DNA of 43,250 nucleotides from a virus (lineage: Duplodnaviria > Heunggongvirae > Uroviricota > Caudoviricetes): the IMG/VR virus record IMGVR_UViG_2654587569_000010; one strand, written 5' to 3'. Each line of letters starts with the position of its first letter. Positions within the stretch are counted from its first letter, which is position 1. The translations under genes were made by a program, and so were the position numbers. Under the pieces are notes generated by a model. The model did no database searches and was not told where the DNA came from. It saw only the letters and a list, made by a program, of their open reading frames with translations. Positions 1-43,250 of this stretch are shown one piece after another.

Positions 1-1158
1 ATGCTCACCGTTAAGCAGATTGAAGCAGCAAAGCCGAAAGAAAAACCATACCGCCTACTCGATAGTAATGGCCTGTACCTTTATGTCCCTGTGTCAGGGA
101 AAAAGGTATGGCAGCTTCGCTACAAGATTGACGGTAAGGAGAAAATCCTGACCGTAGGAAAATATCCGCTAATGACTTTGCAGGAGGCAAGAGATAAAGC
201 ATGGACCGCGAGGAAAGACATCTCGGTTGGCATCGATCCGGTAAAAGCGAAAAAGGCTTCGTCTAACAACAATTCCTTTAGTGCGATTTACAAGGAATGG
301 TACGAGCACAAGAAGCAAGTCTGGTCAGTAGGCTATGCAACTGAACTTGCAAAAATGTTTGATGACGACATTTTACCTATCATCGGCGGCCTTGAAATTC
401 AGGATATTGAGCCGATGCAACTGCTGGAAGTAATCCGCAGATTTGAAGATCGCGGTGCAATGGAGCGAGCCAACAAAGCCCGCAGAAGATGCGGCGAGGT
501 TTTCCGTTACGCTATTGTCACTGGTAGGGCTAAATATAACCCGGCACCTGACCTTGCTGACGCCATGAAGGGATACCGCAAGAAGAACTTCCCGTTTCTC
601 CCAGCAGACCAGATCCCTGCATTCAACAAAGCACTGGCAACATTTTCAGGAAGCATCATATCGCTCATTGCGACCAAAGTTTTACGCTACACAGCCCTAA
701 GAACGAAAGAGCTTCGCTCCATGCAATGGAAGAACGTCGATTTTGAAAACAGGATTATCACTATCGACGCCAGTGTGATGAAGGGCCGCAAGATTCATGT
801 TGTTCCTATGTCAGACCAGGTGGTTGAACTTCTCACTACGCTAAGCTCCATCACTAAACCAGTATCAGAGTTTGTTTTTGCCGGGCGCAACGATAAGAAG
901 AAGCCAATCTGCGAGAACGCGGTGCTACTTGTGATCAAACAAATCGGCTATGAGGGTCTGGAAAGCGGTCACGGATTCAGGCATGAATTCAGCACGATTA
1001 TGAACGAGCACGAATGGCCTGCTGATGCTATTGAAGTGCAACTGGCACATGCCAACGGCGGATCTGTGCGCGGGATTTACAACCATGCTCAGTATCTCGA
1101 TAAGCGCAGAGAAATGATGCAATGGTGGACGGACTGGCTTGATGAAAAGGTGGAGTGA
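1..1158 (+). CDS. intS: tyrosine integrase, P4/IntS type
   Basis: 385 aa; N-terminus MLTVKQIEAAKPKEKPYRL (P4-type DUF4102-like), C-terminal HGFRH...LAH...GIYNHAQY catalytic region; recalled as near-identical to E. coli K-12 IntS. Confidence 0.85.
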   Translation: MLTVKQIEAAKPKEKPYRLLDSNGLYLYVPVSGKKVWQLRYKIDGKEKILTVGKYPLMTLQEARDKAWTARKDISVGIDPVKAKKASSNNNSFSAIYKEWYEHKKQVWSVGYATELAKMFDDDILPIIGGLEIQDIEPMQLLEVIRRFEDRGAMERANKARRRCGEVFRYAIVTGRAKYNPAPDLADAMKGYRKKNFPFLPADQIPAFNKALATFSGSIISLIATKVLRYTALRTKELRSMQWKNVDFENRIITIDASVMKGRKIHVVPMSDQVVELLTTLSSITKPVSEFVFAGRNDKKKPICENAVLLVIKQIGYEGLESGHGFRHEFSTIMNEHEWPADAIEVQLAHANGGSVRGIYNHAQYLDKRREMMQWWTDWLDEKVE

Positions 1159-1236
1159 TCCACCTTAACCATTATCGAAGAGCACAAAGCCTTGCAATCA
1201 AGTACAAGGATTTGCAATTCACTTCATTTACAAAGT

Positions 1237-3399
1237 TTATTCACATAAAGATATTGATGCCAATATAAACATTGCAAGTTCGTCATATCTTATACCATAA
1301 CTTTCACAAAAGATATCTATATTTCCAGTCATGTGTTCGCGATGCGTTTTATCGTGACACCAAAACCCATACTTACTAGGATCAAGTCCGTGCTTCCTCA
1401 TTATATTACCAACAGTTTGAGCTCCAACACCAAAATGCCACCTAGCACCATCAAATCCCTTTACCTCAACAGAATCCAGCATCTTAAACTTTTTAATATT
1501 ATCTTTTATTTCTAGTGCAGCTTTTTTTTCAGCAACATCAATGTCTGTTAGTTTTGTTTTCAACATTTCATTTGATGTATTTATCATTCCTGTAGTTGCA
1601 TATATTGTTTTATATCTCGCATCCGGCCCACCAATATCAAAAGCATTATCAATTTGTGGTGTAATTTTCCCATAATGAAAGAATAATTCATGCTCACTAT
1701 TACCTATAGCTACAGTATTCTGAGCGGCAATTACCCCACTACCGATAGCTACTGCGTTACTTCCGGTTGATTTTGTATTATCTCCGAGAAGGACGCAGTT
1801 TGTCACATCTGTAGCCTGCTCTGACACGTTACCAGAATTAGAACCTAAAAATACATTGAAAGATCCAGCCGTTACTTTAAACCCTGCATCGAATCCAATA
1901 CCAACATTATCAGATCCTGATGCAGAATATAGCGCCTCGTAACCTATAGCTGTATTATTATTACCTAACGCGTTGAAACCCGACTTAGCCCCTACCGCAA
2001 CACAATACTGGATAGACACCCCCGTAGGAAAACTGGAATTACCGCCACGTAACGCATATTCACCAAAAGCGGTGTTCTCATTACCAGCACTGTTGTGATA
2101 CAAGGCCTGCACACCTGCCGCAGTATTCCCAAATCCTGTTTTGTTATACCTGTTAGTATCATTACCAATACCAGTATTACCGTAGCCTGTTGTGTTTGCA
2201 CATAACGCAAAAACCCCAACCGCTACGTTATCAGAACCAGATACGTTAGCTCTTAGAGAATCAGCACCGTATGCACAATTGTTTTTACCAGTCTTATTGT
2301 TTTCCATAGACTGAATCCCAGACGCGGTATTTGCGTATCCTGTAGTGTTTGAGTGCAAACTCTTCCACCCATATGCGGTATTGTTAGCTCCTACGTTTCC
2401 ACCGCCTAATGAGTCTTTTCCAGCGGAAGTATTAGTATCATTGTTTCCGCTAACATTAAAAATAACGCTTCCTGATTTAACGATGCTGCCACTTCCTGTG
2501 TTTATTACTGATGGATTGGAAGGAATGAAAAATGACCATGAGTCATTTACTGTATGTCCAGTGGTTGAAGAAAAGTTTATCTTCAATCCACTTACGAAAA
2601 AATCCACCCCACCTGCAAGTATTACGATTGGTTGCTGAGATACACTGTCATCGATTGGGTTGTACACGTCTATCGTGTCACGCCATGTAACTCCATTATC
2701 TGTACTGAATTCAAGCTTATCAGGATTTGAAGCTTCTTTTATTCTTACAATTGCATTTAGATCTTGCTGTCCATTGTATATTCCTGACACGGTCATGTCG
2801 TTAACACCAGAGCCAGAATATTTAGTCTGGTAATTAATCACTACTATGCCAGGCCCCCAATATCTCTTATTTAAGTTAATATTATTTACATTATAAATAC
2901 CATCAGGAATGTATATGTCATTGAATTCCGATATCTCTGCATCGTTAAATGCCTGCGTATTGTTTGTTAATCCATCACCAATAGCACCAAAAAAAGTAAT
3001 AGGCTTCGAAACACCACCTATCAATCCTGCTCCACCAGATGATTCAAGCTCCAACCTTAATTGATCCGGCTCATACTTCAACACATTAGGAAAATAGAAC
3101 TGCTGTGCACCATATGCGTCATAAACAGCCATAGAATGGCCTTGCACAGTTACGAACTTTGCAATCTGCCCGTTATATACCGGGTATCCAGCAGCGTTAA
3201 TGATGATTGGTTGCGAAACAGGAACGTGAGAGCCGTCTTCGTTCTCCACATAAACCTGAATCTGGTTTTCAGGATTTACCGGGTCAGTGTCAATTTTACC
3301 GATATAAATTTTGCCATTGGCTACGGCTTTAAAAGAACGCGCCATAGTGAAGAGTTGCGAAGGCATCGATACGATCACATTGGCTGTAATGTCTGTCAT
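1237..3399 (-). CDS. tailspike: P22 gp9-like head-binding N-terminus, Gly/Asn/Thr/Ala-rich repeat middle, C-terminal intramolecular chaperone (S74-like) domain
   Basis: N-terminal 115 aa ([11 protein letters not shown]...[19 protein letters not shown]...[12 protein letters not shown]) matches P22 gp9; C-terminus ...[22 protein letters not shown]... resembles autocleaving chaperone of endosialidase-type fibers. Confidence 0.8.
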
Positions 3400-3531
3400 T
3401 TAATTTGCTCCAGATACAAGGAATCGCCGCAGCATGGCTACGGTTGGTATTTGTTGCATACCGAAACGGTACGATTGTTGATTTGTACAGTAGGTTTTAC
3501 GATGCCATTCCACCCATTTGGTGAGGCATTG

Positions 3532-3789
3532 ATGATGTACAGCAAATACGATGAGGCGCAGTTCCACTTGAGGCTTACGCACGAGTTGCACGCTAAGATT
3601 AAGCAGCGTGCAAAAATGAATAACAGGTCTATCAATTCCGAAATTGTGGCTACGATGGAAGAATCACTCTCCAAACCATCACCTGTAAGCGGGTATCGTG
3701 ATGAAGAAGAGAGGCTGGCCTCATTAATCTCGGAACGAGTAAAAGAAGTTGCGGCTGATATCCTTAGAAAAGAAAAAACCCGCGATTAA
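3532..3789 (+). CDS. mnt: Mnt-like ribbon-helix-helix repressor
   Basis: Only the last 85 aa of track ORF 3061..3789 are credible; QFHLRL...NNRSINSEIV...SLSKPSPVSGYRDEEERLA parallels P22 Mnt; GGTGAGG SD 5 nt before ATG at 3532. Confidence 0.7.
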   Translation: MMYSKYDEAQFHLRLTHELHAKIKQRAKMNNRSINSEIVATMEESLSKPSPVSGYRDEEERLASLISERVKEVAADILRKEKTRD

Positions 3790-3803
3790 GCGGGTTTAGT
3801 TGG

Positions 3804-4025
3804 TTAGTTATCAAAAAGTCCGTACGTTTCTTCTTCTTCAGGTGTAAGGGGAAGAATCTCTACTCTATCTATAGATACCTTTTCAATGTACCCATGAGGT
3901 CTACTTAAAATTAAAGCTCTCTCATGCCACAGAACTCCAAGAATGTGATACCTTCCAGCATCGCCTTTTACCCTGGCTCTTCCTTTGATTCTTGGCGGCA
4001 TAATGCCATATTTTTTCTTTGCCAT
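3804..4025 (-). CDS. hypothetical protein (73 aa), translationally coupled to upstream antirepressor
   Basis: ORF track; start ATG overlaps stop of 4025..4753 gene (TAATG). Confidence 0.4.
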   Translation of the reverse strand: MAKKKYGIMPPRIKGRARVKGDAGRYHILGVLWHERALILSRPHGYIEKVSIDRVEILPLTPEEEETYGLFDN

Positions 4026-4753
4026 TATGCAACATTACTCCCATGAATCAGGTGTTGTAGTGCTTTAACACCTTCCGCATTGTAGCGGAATGCTTCCACC
4101 TGTTTGCTGGAATGCGCAGATTTATCCAGGAAGAACTTACCGTACTGCTCAGTTTTGAGGTTGTTTGCGTTAGCAATGCGACCAATCTTGTTGGCCGTTA
4201 CTCCAAGCTGCTCTGCAACCTCCCCTGCTGAGTAGTAATGCTCTTCTATTGCTGGAAGAGGTATTGCATTAAAACCAACGATCGGGTTGATTATGCTTGC
4301 TGCCGCAGTCTGCTTTGCTTCCGGCGCAAGATTTGGCATCAAATCGAACAGATTGGTAACAGCTTCAACCGTCATTTTCAATGTTCGCGCCTGGCGATAC
4401 TCAACAAGTCCACTAGACGATTTACCGCTTTTAATGTGCGCTTCTTGCATACTTTCAAGTTGGTCTACAAGTGAGCGGCGAACAGCTTTAGATTCACGAG
4501 CAGCCACTCGAAGGGCTTGCTTAATTGACATAACAACTTTTTCAGAAGTTGTCTTGTTTGATTTTTGAACTACGAAAATTTCGTAGTGCTCACCTTCAAG
4601 TTCATCCTTAATGCGTGCAATAAAGTCGTTATTGCGGACTTCTTTTTCCCCGCACTGTCTACGAGCATGATTGACCATCTCTAACAGGTACTGGCTATCA
4701 ATGGTTTTATCCGTGACAACGGATCCGATGTTTGCTACATTCTTAAAAGTCAT
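4025..4753 (-). CDS. antirepressor-like protein (Rha-type N-terminus, KilA-C/Ant-C-like C-terminus)
   Basis: Track ORF 4025..4804 trimmed to ATG at 4753 with AAGGAA SD; C-terminal SAGEVAEQLGVTANKIGRIANANNL motif resembles phage antirepressor C domains. Confidence 0.55.
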   Translation of the reverse strand: MTFKNVANIGSVVTDKTIDSQYLLEMVNHARRQCGEKEVRNNDFIARIKDELEGEHYEIFVVQKSNKTTSEKVVMSIKQALRVAARESKAVRRSLVDQLESMQEAHIKSGKSSSGLVEYRQARTLKMTVEAVTNLFDLMPNLAPEAKQTAAASIINPIVGFNAIPLPAIEEHYYSAGEVAEQLGVTANKIGRIANANNLKTEQYGKFFLDKSAHSSKQVEAFRYNAEGVKALQHLIHGSNVA

Positions 4754-23416: not shown

Positions 23417-23492
23417 TGGTGCTGGTTAACGGACTTGAACCGCTACCCATTCGCTTACAAGGCGACTGCTCTACCATTGGAGCTAAACCAGC
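23417..23492 (-). tRNA. tRNA-Thr (anticodon UGU), CCA encoded
   Basis: 76-nt cloverleaf by hand: acceptor GCTGGTT/AACCAGC, D-arm GCTC-CAATGGTA-GAGC, anticodon loop CTTGTAA, T-arm AGCGG-TTCAAGT-CCGTT; one mismatch in anticodon stem. Confidence 0.6.
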
Positions 23493-23497
23493 ATATT

Positions 23498-23572
23498 TGG
23501 CGGGACAGCGTGGACTCGAACCACGATAAGAAGGTTAACAGCCTTCCGTAATGACCTTTATACGACTGACCC
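23498..23572 (-). tRNA. tRNA-Asn-like (anticodon GUU), CCA encoded, atypical D-arm
   Basis: Anticodon stem GAAGG/CCTTC with loop CTGTTAA, T-arm CGTGG-TTCGAGT-CCACG, acceptor with one T-T mismatch; 5 nt upstream of tRNA-Thr. Confidence 0.5.
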
Positions 23573-30535: not shown

Positions 30536-30697
30536 TTTGACTTCTCCGAAGTTTTGTACCTGTTAAGTATTTCTCTCAGTGGCACAGCTATTGCTGGATT
30601 AACCCCCTGATAAAACTGGTCACGTAGCACATCTTTTCGGTGATTAACGCGTTTATTTTCCTGCGTTTTTCGCATATAATTACCTCGTTGGATGTTG

Positions 30698-40347: not shown

Positions 40348-40368
40348 CCGCATCAATGCGGTTTTTTT
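40348..40368 (+). terminator. rho-independent terminator at end of the leftward-operon equivalent
   Basis: CCGCA-TCAA-TGCGG hairpin followed by seven T. Confidence 0.5.
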
Positions 40369-40413
40369 ATTACCTGATTTGCAGGTTCGATTCCCTATTC
40401 GGAGATAGCACTC

Positions 40414-40614
40414 ATGCAACACGAACTACAGCCTGATTCCCTGGTTGATTTGAAATTCATCATGGCTGATACTGGCTTTGGTAAAACCTTCATCTACGAC
40501 CGGATTAAGTCCGGCGACCTGCCAAAAGCCAAAGTTATCCACGGGCGAGCAAGATGGTTATATCGTGACCATTGTGAATTCAAAAATAAGCTCTTAAGCC
40601 GCGCCAATGGGTAA
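40414..40614 (+). CDS. torI: excisionase / recombination directionality factor, TorI-like
   Basis: 66 aa; MQHELQPDSLVDLKFIMADTGFGKTFIYDRIKSGDLPKAKVIHGRARW recalled as E. coli TorI, the KplE1 prophage RDF. Confidence 0.7.
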   Translation: MQHELQPDSLVDLKFIMADTGFGKTFIYDRIKSGDLPKAKVIHGRARWLYRDHCEFKNKLLSRANG

Positions 40615-40682
40615 AATAGCGGGTAAAATATTTCTCACACCTAAAAAACACCATTCCAATCAATCCCCTGCCGCTTCAAGTA

Positions 40683-40702
40683 GATGTCTGCAGGGGACAC
40701 CA
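40683..40702 (+). other. att core-like sequence identical to the 3' end of tRNA-Arg (argW-type); proposed right prophage junction
   Basis: CTGCAGGGGACACCA matches the recalled argW 3' end; a related 16-nt T-loop-type fragment TTGCAGGTTCGATTCC lies at 40379..40394. Confidence 0.5.
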
Positions 40703-40866
40703 TCCCGCCGTACACTAACGTCTACCATTGTCTATAAACCCCATGTAACCATATAAAAATAAAGAGATTTTATTCTCATGACGTCCATTGCCGTCTATTG
40801 AAATCAAGTAAATCTATGGGGCATAATTGGGGGCATTGCTGGTTCGATTGTAAATGTGCCCCCAAT

Positions 40867-42153
40867 ATGTCCAGAAATACCCTCAACAAATTAACAGACC
40901 GTCAGTGCAAAGCAGCTAAGCCACGAGACAAAACTTATAAATTGTCTGATGGTGGTGGTCTTTATCTTGAAGTATCCCAGACCGGGTCGAAGTATTGGCG
41001 AATGAAGTATCGCCGCCCATCAGATAAGAAAGAAGACAGACTTGCTTTTGGTGTATATCCAACCATTAGCTTACAAGACGCCAGAGAAAAACGAGACAAC
41101 GCCAAAAAGTTGTTAGTCAAGGGGATAGATCCCAAAGCAGAGCAAAGAGCAGCAAAAGCAGAAGAAAAAGGTGCATTCACTTTTGAGACAATAGGACGTC
41201 AATGGGTTGAAAGCCACCAGATGTGGAACGAAGCCCACCGAAAACGCGTACTTAGAAGCCTTGAAATGTATATTTTCCCTCACATTGGCACTTCGGATAT
41301 TCGCAAACTGGAGGCGATGACAATTTTACCTTTGTTTAAGAAGGTAGATGACGCCGGGAAACACGATACAGCCAACCGACTTAAACAACGAGTTAAGGAC
41401 ATCATACATAGCGCCCGTCTGAGCGGCATTAAGACAGAAATCATCACGAATGATCTCGATGTCCGGTTAATGCAATATGAAACTAAGCATCATGCCGCAC
41501 TACATCCCAGAGATTTACCAGACTTTTTCACTCGATTGGGCAGCTTTAAAGGTAATCCTCTTACCCGCCTTGCCATTGAGCTAACCATGTTGACCTTTGT
41601 TCGTTCAAGCGAGTTAAGGTTTGCCCGTTGGAAAGAGTTTGACCTTGATCGGGCTGAGTGGATTATCCCTAAAAAAAGAGAGCCTATCGATGGTGTGAGG
41701 TTTTCCACCCGTGGCACAAAGACGGGAAAAGACGAACATATCGTGCTTCTTAGCCGTCAGGCTGTTTCTATTGTAAAGCAGTTGAGAGAACTAAGCGGAA
41801 GCTACGATGTTGTGTTTCCGAATGAAAGAAACACCAAAGGCGTGATGAGTGAAAACACGGTAAACAAGGCATTACGCTTAATGGGCTATAACACGCAAGA
41901 GGACGTAACTGGACATGGATTCCGTGCCACAGCCTGTAGTTCCCTGATGGAGTCCGGTTTGTGGCAGGAGGACGCAGTAGAGCGCCAGATGAGCCACAAA
42001 GAATATAAAGACGTTAAAAGAGCCTACAAGCACAAGGCTGATTACTTAGAAGAGCGCAAACTAATGCTTCAATGGTGGGCAGATTATCTGGACGCCAATC
42101 GAGAAATACACATAAGCCCTTACGAGTTCGGAAGGAGAACACGCCGTGACTAA
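40867..42153 (+). CDS. int: tyrosine integrase, P4 type (second copy, divergent from 1..1158)
   Basis: MSRNTLNKLTDRQCKAAKPRDKTYKLSDGGGLYLEV P4-type N-terminus; C-terminal HGFRAT...MSH...AYKHKADY retains R, H and Y; track ORF 40798.. has a TTG-extended N-terminus. Confidence 0.8.
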   Translation: MSRNTLNKLTDRQCKAAKPRDKTYKLSDGGGLYLEVSQTGSKYWRMKYRRPSDKKEDRLAFGVYPTISLQDAREKRDNAKKLLVKGIDPKAEQRAAKAEEKGAFTFETIGRQWVESHQMWNEAHRKRVLRSLEMYIFPHIGTSDIRKLEAMTILPLFKKVDDAGKHDTANRLKQRVKDIIHSARLSGIKTEIITNDLDVRLMQYETKHHAALHPRDLPDFFTRLGSFKGNPLTRLAIELTMLTFVRSSELRFARWKEFDLDRAEWIIPKKREPIDGVRFSTRGTKTGKDEHIVLLSRQAVSIVKQLRELSGSYDVVFPNERNTKGVMSENTVNKALRLMGYNTQEDVTGHGFRATACSSLMESGLWQEDAVERQMSHKEYKDVKRAYKHKADYLEERKLMLQWWADYLDANREIHISPYEFGRRTRRD

Positions 42154-42901
42154 GATGACAGGACTAGATGCGTTTTATAACGAGTCAGAAGATAAAATCT
42201 GGTTTGGTAATCTGATCAGCGAACTGGCAAGACTAAACAATGAAAATGAAAGAATGATAGCTGCCGCTATCTTAAGTAACTACAGATTGAGCAAGACTAA
42301 ACCAGATACTTTAGGGGGGCTGGGCTTTTATCAGTTCGATTGGGTATCTGGTTTTACGACAAATGAAGACTTTGAAAAGCAGTGTGTGGAGTTTTTAGGT
42401 CTTCTGGCTATGGGGCATGAATACAGGGAGAGCCCGATACCGGGGGAAGAAGGGACTTTCAACGTTAGGAAAGGAGAAGACTTTTTATATCACGATGATG
42501 AGGATGATTGGTATGGGTCTTACGATTCGTTTTATTTCAAGCGATCCGAGGTTGTGAACTTCTTCCCAGAACTGGATATGAATGTTCCAGATAACGAACC
42601 AGAAATTGGAGCACTGTCAAAAAAAGTAGAAAGAGAACAAAACTGGAGAGGAAAAGATACGGCTTTAAAGATGATCGCCGGAATGGCGATTGCCTTATTT
42701 GAATCAAGCAAAGATTTCCATAGTGGAGGAAACCTTAGTATCAATAGGGTTAGTGCCCAAGTAATAGAAAACAACATAATATTCGGGAACGATGAAGACA
42801 GCGATACCCACCCAGATACATTTCGGAGATTGCTAACGAACGCTTTGGATAAGTACGCCCCCAAATTTAAGAACAAAGCAACCAAAAAGCGTCCAAAATA
42901 A
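42146..42901 (+). CDS. hypothetical acidic protein (251 aa), translationally coupled to integrase
   Basis: GTG start with GGAG SD 8 nt upstream, overlapping int stop; no recognisable domain; no TM segments. Confidence 0.5.
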   Translation: MTKMTGLDAFYNESEDKIWFGNLISELARLNNENERMIAAAILSNYRLSKTKPDTLGGLGFYQFDWVSGFTTNEDFEKQCVEFLGLLAMGHEYRESPIPGEEGTFNVRKGEDFLYHDDEDDWYGSYDSFYFKRSEVVNFFPELDMNVPDNEPEIGALSKKVEREQNWRGKDTALKMIAGMAIALFESSKDFHSGGNLSINRVSAQVIENNIIFGNDEDSDTHPDTFRRLLTNALDKYAPKFKNKATKKRPK

Positions 42902-43058
42902 AGGAAGGATGTTCCCAAATTGTGCGTTAGAACTAAAAAATAACGCCCAATTTGGGGTAATTCTATTCCCAAAAATTTTTTCTCCAAATTCACAGAAAAC
43001 TTAAAAAAAACAATGATTTACTATCTCACATAGTCAAGCAACGTATTACGAGGTAGAT

Positions 43059-43250
43059 ATGAAAAAGTCGCTGATTCGGCTATCTGAGGTTTTGAAACGC
43101 ACTGGCTATAGCAAGGCGTGGGTATATGCTCTGATGAGCCGAGGACAATTCCCCCAATCAGTCAAGATTGGTGCTCGCGCAATAGCTTTTATTGAAAGCG
43201 AGATCGATGACTGGATCGATCAACGTATAGCCGAATCGCGTAGCAACTAA
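43059..43250 (+). CDS. alpA: AlpA-family transcriptional regulator / excisionase
   Basis: 63 aa; LIRLSEVLKRTGYSKAWVYALMSRGQFPQSVKIGARAIAFIESEIDDWI fits AlpA HTH; GAGGTAG SD. Confidence 0.75.
   Translation: MKKSLIRLSEVLKRTGYSKAWVYALMSRGQFPQSVKIGARAIAFIESEIDDWIDQRIAESRSN

Follow-up and report, generated by a model that had tools for sequence, protein, structure and literature searches.

The stretch of DNA analysed here, which we call the window, comprises 43,250 nt and is listed in IMG/VR as a virus of the Caudoviricetes (record IMGVR_UViG_2654587569_000010). It carries two sets of site-specific recombination genes, and between them lies a short sequence identical to the 3' terminus of argW, a tRNA-Arg gene. 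The first set consists of intS at the left end and torI, or xis, near the right end. The second set lies to the right of the argW sequence and consists of a further integrase gene, int2, an open reading frame (ORF) of 251 codons, orf251, and alpA. In other Escherichia coli genomes the second set forms the start of a larger element, referred to here as the island. The first base of the window is that of the intS ATG and the last base is that of the alpA stop codon.

The product of intS (1..1158, + strand) has the Pfam domains Arm-DNA-bind_3, Phage_int_M and Phage_integrase of a P4/DUF4102-type tyrosine integrase and was identical at 381 of 385 residues (99%) to IntS of the cryptic prophage KplE1 (CPS-53) of E. 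coli K-12. The ORF at 40414..40614 (+ strand) encodes 66 residues, all of which (100%) are shared with TorI, the KplE1 excisionase of K-12, and it is labelled torI in the matching genomes. We assign it as the recombination directionality factor of the prophage. Orthologues of IntS and TorI at opposite ends are the hallmark of the KplE1/HK620/Sf6 module. The gene next to intS encodes a tailspike with a P22 head-binding domain, and the best genomic matches of the prophage bear annotations for portal, tailspike, gp10, DNA-transfer proteins and terminase. Positions 1 to 40703 of the window make up a temperate prophage of the P22-like kind, and its recombination module is of the KplE1/HK620/Sf6 type. 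This prophage is a unique mosaic: 80% coverage of its first 24 kb was reached in no complete genome.

The last 15 nt of argW, CTGCAGGGGACACCA, occur exactly once in the window, at 40688-40702. Together with the next T they make up the published 16-nt core of KplE1 (PMC2951348), and the same core has been reported for Sf6, HK620 and Kapi1 (PMC8787464). In the window, this attachment (att) core, CTGCAGGGGACACCAT, occupies 40688..40703 (+ strand). The segment from torI to attP is shared with 41 phage records (HK620, Sf6, Kapi1, IME10 and others); every match stops at 40702 or 40703, and int2, orf251 and alpA are present in none of these records. The junction was aligned with the attP of HK620, the attR of K-12, the attR of an island-free prophage and both island ends from a prophage-free genome. 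The window sequence before the core was identical to the P arm of HK620 attP and K-12 attR; the sequence after it (TCCCGCCGTACAC..., TCCCGCCGTACACTAACG...) matched base for base the DNA next to the intact argW in genomes that carry only the island. At 40688-40703 the phage P arm on the left and the left arm of the island on the right have been joined by recombination, and the core is a hybrid of the prophage attR and the island attL.

Since the window begins at the int ATG, neither argW nor attL can appear within it. Both were found on contig L005 (GCA_001266405.1), which has 0 mismatches to window positions 1-4158. The order on this contig is yfdC, an intact tRNA-Arg(CCU) gene argW, the core, the IntS P' arm and int. 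The end of argW lies 161 bp before int, and the attL copy of the 16-nt core sits in argW. Integration and excision of the prophage would be carried out by IntS and TorI through this core.

On the other side of the junction, the ATG of int2 (40867..42153, + strand; RefSeq coding sequence WP_000089393.1) follows 165 bp past the core. Int2 has 428 residues and the same three-domain Pfam architecture as IntS, with E = 6.7e-29, 1e-18 and 8e-17 for the N-terminal arm-binding, central and catalytic domains. The box I R, HGFR and Y of the two proteins align, and with the R...HxxR...Y residues in place Int2 is an integrase of the P4 type (Arm-DNA-bind_3/DUF4102). Its identity to IntS is 31%; the closest protein among the phage records is Int of satellite P4, with 57.6% identity over 96% of the length. 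The next gene, orf251 (42146..42901, + strand), overlaps the stop region of int2 by 8 nt. It is followed after 157 bp by alpA (43059..43250, + strand), the product of which matches PF05930 with E = 3.6e-18, carries the PHROG label 'excisionase and transcriptional regulator' and is distantly similar to TorI; we assign it as the AlpA-family regulator/excisionase of the island. The three genes are intact and share 2562 of 2563 nt with island-only strains. A first-pass annotation of the window, made from its letters alone, had named the IntS-type and TorI-like genes at the two prophage ends, the 15 nt from the argW 3' end and, about 165 bp further on, a second, divergent P4-type integrase with a coupled ORF and alpA, and it had expected an argW upstream of int. 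All of this agrees with the comparisons above.

The provirus caller had put int2, orf251 and alpA inside a single predicted provirus, and this is the only point in favour of reading them as an internal second recombination module of one phage genome. One phage with two integrases is refuted by the findings that phage genomes with this module end at the core and that the same genes stand beside an intact argW without any phage. They also occur behind an unrelated lambda-like prophage, and we leave this reading practically no probability. We conclude, with a probability of roughly 0.88, that a P22-like prophage and an independent island of about 10.7 kb are arranged in tandem at one argW, and that the window contains the whole of the first element and the first 2.5 kb of the second. 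The comparisons demonstrate how the junction is built, that the two elements are independent and where the boundaries of each lie. The core-ended phage matches and the island-only genomes thus confirm the second element in tandem at argW that the first-pass annotation had suspected.

The island beyond alpA was described from relatives that are 99-100% identical over int2-alpA. In L001 and L010-L019 it measures about 10.7 kb from argW to a second copy of the core that adjoins dsdC. A 26-bp direct repeat, TTCGATTCCTGCAGGGGACACCATCC, flanks the island, and both ends, with argW intact, were seen in L001 and L010-L017; the island is integrated at the tRNA 3' end with a direct repeat that restores the gene. 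In many genomes the order of genes is int2, orf251, alpA, a 63-aa ORF, a 64-aa HTH_17 protein, a 128-aa ORF, a HUH Rep, cargo, a small ORF and a serine recombinase. The first-pass annotation had considered that ordinary phage early genes might follow alpA; they are absent from every relative examined, and the island instead continues to the second core before dsdC. The Rep protein has 350 aa, belongs to PF23343 (REP_ORF2-G2P) and has the motifs HVHAI and IDYMAK. Its only relatives are on plasmids of Klebsiella and Enterobacter (24-30% identity), several of them small and most of them typed as non-mobilisable, and no sequence relative was found in the PDB at E <= 1.

The cargo slot lies between Rep and the resolvase (L022 16149-19615, - strand; L013 13831-16311; L010 13879-17505) and is filled differently in different genomes. 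One variant carries GapS6b and GapS6a (RefSeq names; PIN-TPR-GreABC and HetE-N domains), another a single 826-aa protein that combines SIR2 and STAND-NTPase, and a third a pair of 825 and 330 aa. This last pair (L022 16149-19615) gave no match in Pfam or PADLOC and may be an uncharacterised defence system. Carriage of phage-defence cargo would be the main selective role of the island. We classify it as an integrative defence island that targets a tRNA gene and has a satellite-like recombination module. As far as we found, it is undescribed by name: no such description was found in the literature on argW or yfdC combined with defence, hotspot or satellite, a search that did not cover Moritz and Welch 2006.

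The gene orf251 had zero matches in Pfam, PHROG, NCBIfam and PADLOC. Its family is rare, with 16 matches among 1.84 billion representatives and 10 clusters in 5.8 billion proteins; among 185,579 species representatives it was found, besides E. coli, only in E. albertii and one Citrobacter. The context was examined for three relatives, P0012, P0017 and P0018 (family members at L054 8001-8807, L058 8001-8828 and L061 949-1695), and all of them adjoin alpA. The gene upstream of P0017 and P0018 is a P4-type integrase, and upstream of P0012 (L061) it is a partial gene. The two distant members among them belong to elements that also encode AntA, Phage_ASH and a P4-alpha-like primase. The E. coli variants do not vary in the N-terminal 145 residues and diverge strongly in the C-terminal 100 or so; the DNA of this divergent stretch is the sole part of the 2.9-kb segment that does not align with the variants of 72% identity. 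An AlphaFold model built with the distant homologues had a pLDDT (predicted local distance difference test) of 70. From its position and its likeness to the iolg gene of the phage-inducible chromosomal minimalist islands (PICMI) discussed below, orf251 is a candidate excision cofactor.

Each of the two elements has its own integrase and a small directionality factor of the winged-helix type, namely IntS with TorI, and Int2 with AlpA, probably together with the orf251 product. Excision of the island would be the work of Int2, AlpA and the orf251 product, with Rep copying the resulting circle. The rare orf251 family and the cargo pair are leads to follow, the former as a candidate excision cofactor and the latter as a possible new defence system.

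The arm regions on the two sides of the core were also inspected. On the prophage side, a repeat search gave two direct GGGTAAAATA repeats (40609..40630, + strand), the IntS arm-type (P-arm) sites, which coincide with the 'attP' repeat_region of HK620. On the island side, the left arm (40704..40866, + strand), the same DNA as that found after the intact argW in island-only genomes, holds candidate arm-type sites for Int2. The motif GGGGCA begins there at 40818 and 40830, and an inverted repeat ATTGGGGGCA/TGCCCCCAAT lies at 40826-40835 and 40857-40866. The form (T/G)GGGGCA occurs seven times in the island; two copies are within 50 bp of int2, one more is inverted and two are near the right-hand core, which accounts for five of the seven. 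At the right end of the island in L001 the motif is found twice (30632-30650). These copies are candidate binding sites of the Int2 arm type, their placement being as expected for such sites. A repeat search also gave a 16-nt inverted repeat upstream of alpA (42914..42956; arms 42914-42929 and 42941-42956, 94% complementary), which is a candidate operator. The intergenic region between orf251 and alpA (42902-43058) further contains several CCCAAATT/AATTTGGG motifs that resemble AATTGGGGGCA upstream of int2; the motifs may be shared binding sites of a regulator or of the integrase.

A second argW-like fragment had been pointed out at 40379..40394, and it proved genuine. The sequence TTGCAGGTTCGATTCC at 40379-40394 matches argW nt 46-61 in 16 of 16 positions. 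The longest match in 200 shuffles was 15, and we estimate a chance match of 16 nt to argW at about one per thousand windows of such size. In the IntS/TorI module, the 30 nt at the argW 3' end are found in two pieces, nt 46-61 being located 20 bp upstream of torI and nt 61-75 forming the att core. The 293 bp between the two pieces contain torI and the IntS P-arm repeats. The fragment lies in a region (40370..40407, + strand) that is equivalent, by annotation transferred in the alignment, to the CII-activated 'phage integration' promoter of HK620. The split is conserved in HK620 and in K-12 KplE1, and L027 has one substitution. This suggests an ancestral attP with a longer match to the tRNA gene, into which a xis cassette was inserted, and a tRNA relic that was later reused as a promoter.

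The occupancy of argW was counted in 5426 complete E. coli genomes. The site between argW and dsdC was empty in 938 of them. The start of the island was found in 239 genomes, 222 of which cover at least 80% of the query. The tandem junction of torI, core and island, as in the window, was present in 36 genomes, and the island without an IntS/TorI element in about 200; most island copies are alone at argW. A TorI-type attR without the island was obtained by subtraction for about 1360 genomes, K-12 included, and in K-12 and L027 the IntS/TorI element stands directly against dsdC. The reverse junction, consisting of the island right end, the core and the IntS P' arm, was seen in 4 of the 5426 genomes, one of which has a three-element array. 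In strain E2 the identical island is located behind a different, lambda-like IntS/TorI prophage.

The TorI junction was found in about 15% of the island carriers (36/239) versus about 26% of the non-carriers, a rough comparison that is uncorrected for phylogeny; adjacency of island and prophage is not favoured. We conclude from the mixed occupancy states that argW is a shared and reused site, that the elements assort independently and that arrays occur in either order. The passages of PMC8787464 and PMC7545054 that cite Moritz and Welch 2006 describe argW-dsdCXA as a hypervariable genetic island with strain-dependent, prophage-like inserts. The tandem at argW is a common, largely ordinary outcome at a well-known hypervariable tRNA hotspot.

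Several further arrangements were seen at this site. In E. coli S163-2 (L053 7200-14485), argW is followed by intS, a decayed element fused to the right end of the island, the core, a second intS and a prophage. In L015 (19252-19400) the island is followed by a scar of the IntS P' arm that ends just past the ATG of intS. Behind other IntS/TorI prophages, the same core is adjoined by islands that differ from this one and carry other integrases (L020, L023 10960-20372; L031-L035, with the islands placed in L031, L033, L035 10847-20312). One of these islands has a 420-aa integrase, AAA_15/AAA_21 and RloB genes and a large serine recombinase, and another has a decayed integrase, an HsdR-like gene and insertion sequence (IS) elements.

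As to the order of events, the island is near-identical in about 200 island-only genomes while the prophage is a unique mosaic, and for this reason we favour that the island was resident first and that the phage probably lysogenised argW later. The attB requirement of the phage would be the tRNA side and the core only, both of which are left intact by the island. The opposite order, prophage first, would need Int2 to accept a target without TTCGATTC. The first-pass annotation had the island entering an att site regenerated by the prophage, for which we found no support, the population data suggesting the reverse.

Some points weigh against the tandem of two independent mobile elements. Both orders of integration give the identical product, so the order cannot be read from the sequence. 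The island beyond 43250, with its cargo and right-hand core, is outside the window and was deduced from the relatives. The excision of either element in this genome is putative. In the tandem state, the left repeat of the island is 18 of the 26 bp, because phage P-arm sequence has replaced TTCGATTC, and with this shortened repeat the island may be unable to excise alone. The island could then be a trapped, immobile passenger in this genome, the insertion of the phage having replaced the tRNA side of its attL, with vertical inheritance or deletion as its only fates. The 18 of 26 bp left at the middle junction speak for a passenger of this kind, as does the decay of relatives by IS insertion and truncation (L015, L019; H70, H71, H98, H105-H107). 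However, int2, orf251 and alpA are as intact as in the island-only strains, and the retained 18 bp may suffice, depending on where within the 26 bp Int2 crosses over. We regard permanent trapping as unlikely, and keep to two independent elements in tandem.

The presence of int2 to alpA in the window would be due only to a provirus caller that went past the true end of the phage at 40703. The start of the island is contained in 13 IMG/VR provirus entries (L038-L050); about 8 of them have the phage P arm to the left of the core and the others have argW sequence. The entries with the P arm are provirus calls from isolate genomes and extend into the first few genes of the island, apparently a systematic overshoot of provirus boundaries caused by the neighbouring integrase and alpA. 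Overshoot at argW inflates the counts of phages with two integrases. The exact junctions, for their part, document the use of the same 16-18 nt of argW by two unrelated integrases of 31% identity. An argW that is already occupied is still a target, and arrays can therefore grow in either order.

An element with the genes int, orf and alpA next to a prophage raises the question of a phage satellite, and the first-pass annotation had proposed a satellite beside its helper. The island would in this case be a minimalist satellite resembling PICMI, with the neighbouring P22-like prophage as a possible helper. AlpA, triggered by a phage, would switch on excision by Int2 and the orf251 product, and the concatemers made by the HUH Rep would enter full-size capsids by headful packaging, without packaging genes of the island's own. 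The nearest match of Int2 among the phage records, the P4 integrase (57.6% over 96%), fits this scheme, and so do the parallel with PICMI in the series of int, overlapping gene, alpA, small ORFs, replication gene and defence cargo, and the distant orf251 homologues that take the same position in elements with Phage_ASH and a P4-alpha-like primase. By our reckoning, a head of the P22 type would be more or less filled by four 10.7-kb copies.

On the other hand, no primase, helicase, terS, capsid-remodelling or other hijacking gene was detected among the island ORFs of the relatives with Pfam, PHROG and NCBIfam, and a tblastn search with orf251 and Rep over 50,697 phage records gave zero matches. 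The tandem is not enriched, as the rough and phylogenetically uncorrected 15% versus 26% indicates, and most copies of the island are alone at argW. Where an IMG/VR match has phage DNA before the core, it resembles an overshoot at a provirus edge, and no IMG/VR match shows a virion-packaged island. The relatives of Rep, finally, are limited to plasmids of Klebsiella and Enterobacter. We consider a present-day satellite with this helper quite improbable. Equally improbable is the wider proposal that the island, which about 4% of complete E. coli genomes carry, represents an undescribed enterobacterial family of minimalist satellites related to PICMI in design, in which the hypervariable C-terminal half of orf251 would set the specificity for the helper or partner. 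No finding identifies the island as a phage satellite, and some satellite ancestry remains plausible. The resemblance in architecture noted in the first pass is genuine, with the P4-like Int2 and the PICMI layout on its side; a satellite beside its helper is not supported, the island of the relatives having two of the five core components of a phage-inducible chromosomal island (PICI), none of the P4 hijacking genes, no homologues in phage records and no enrichment near IntS/TorI prophages.

The HUH protein could alternatively act as a relaxase, in which case the island would be an integrative mobilisable element whose excised circle is moved by a co-resident conjugative system. The island is without phage-related genes, the HUH (HVHAI) and Tyr (IDYMAK) motifs are present, and there is a weak match to the MobA/VirD2 nuclease domain (PF03432, E = 0.006, below the Pfam cut-off). 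The better Pfam match, however, is to the replication initiator family REP_ORF2-G2P, the plasmid relatives are mostly typed as non-mobilisable, and neither an oriT nor a coupling protein nor other transfer genes were seen. Mobilisation by conjugation is, in our view, very doubtful, and a defence island in tandem with a prophage remains the preferred interpretation.

When compared with named systems, the prophage shares with KplE1 (CPS-53), HK620, Sf6 and Kapi1 the IntS/TorI pair, the 16-nt core, the GGGTAAAATA P-arm repeats and the int...xis orientation between yfdC and dsdC. It differs from them in that the host-side arm of attR is here the left end of another mobile element and not the dsdC flank. 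The chromosomal locus is the same as that of the argW-dsdCXA hypervariable island. The lysis module of the prophage is preceded by genes for tRNA-Thr(UGU) and tRNA-Asn(GUU) (23417-23572, - strand), and the same arrangement of tRNA genes ahead of lysis has been described for Kapi1-like phages (PMC8787464).

The island was compared with P4, PICI, GMT (Gamma-Mobile-Trio) islands and PICMI. It is like P4 in its integrase (57.6%), in targeting a tRNA 3' end, in having an alpA-type regulator and in being about 10 kb long. P4 integrates at leuX, whereas the target of the island is argW. The genes psu, delta and sid, ash/epsilon and the alpha primase-helicase were not detected in the island of the relatives, and with the psu-delta-sid operon, ash/epsilon and the primase-helicase missing we rejected a P4-like satellite. 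For Gram-negative PICI, SatelliteFinder uses five core components (PMC10085698). The island has the left-end integrase and the AlpA regulator in common with PICI; the primase-replicase, the capsid-morphogenesis gene and terS were not detected in the relatives, and a PICI was rejected with two of the five components. GMT islands encode the tyrosine recombinases GmtY and GmtZ and the StbA-like GmtX, insert at inverted repeats and are the elements in which GAPS6 was first found. The island is likewise mobile with swappable defence cargo, and RefSeq names GapS6a and GapS6b in many of its copies. A GMT island was rejected, since there is one P4-type integrase with orf251 and AlpA at a tRNA gene versus two recombinases with GmtX.

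The closest resemblance in layout is to the PICMI of the Vibrionaceae, in which excision depends on a gene overlapping the integrase, alpA serves as the switch triggered by the phage and no genes for packaging are needed (PMC10803314). Both have int, a gene overlapping or contiguous with int (here by 8 nt), alpA, small ORFs, a replication gene and defence cargo, and neither has packaging genes. The core replication gene of PICMI is a primase, whereas the island has the HUH Rep. PICMI are about 6 kb long and lie next to fis in Vibrionaceae, and the island is about 10.7 kb long and lies at argW in Escherichia and Citrobacter. PICMI are induced by a helper phage and packaged as a concatemer; for the island, a helper is hypothetical. 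With the core genes that it lacks, the island falls outside the core definitions of PICI, P4-like satellites and PICMI alike. Should the satellite interpretation nevertheless hold true, the minimalist satellites would extend to E. coli.

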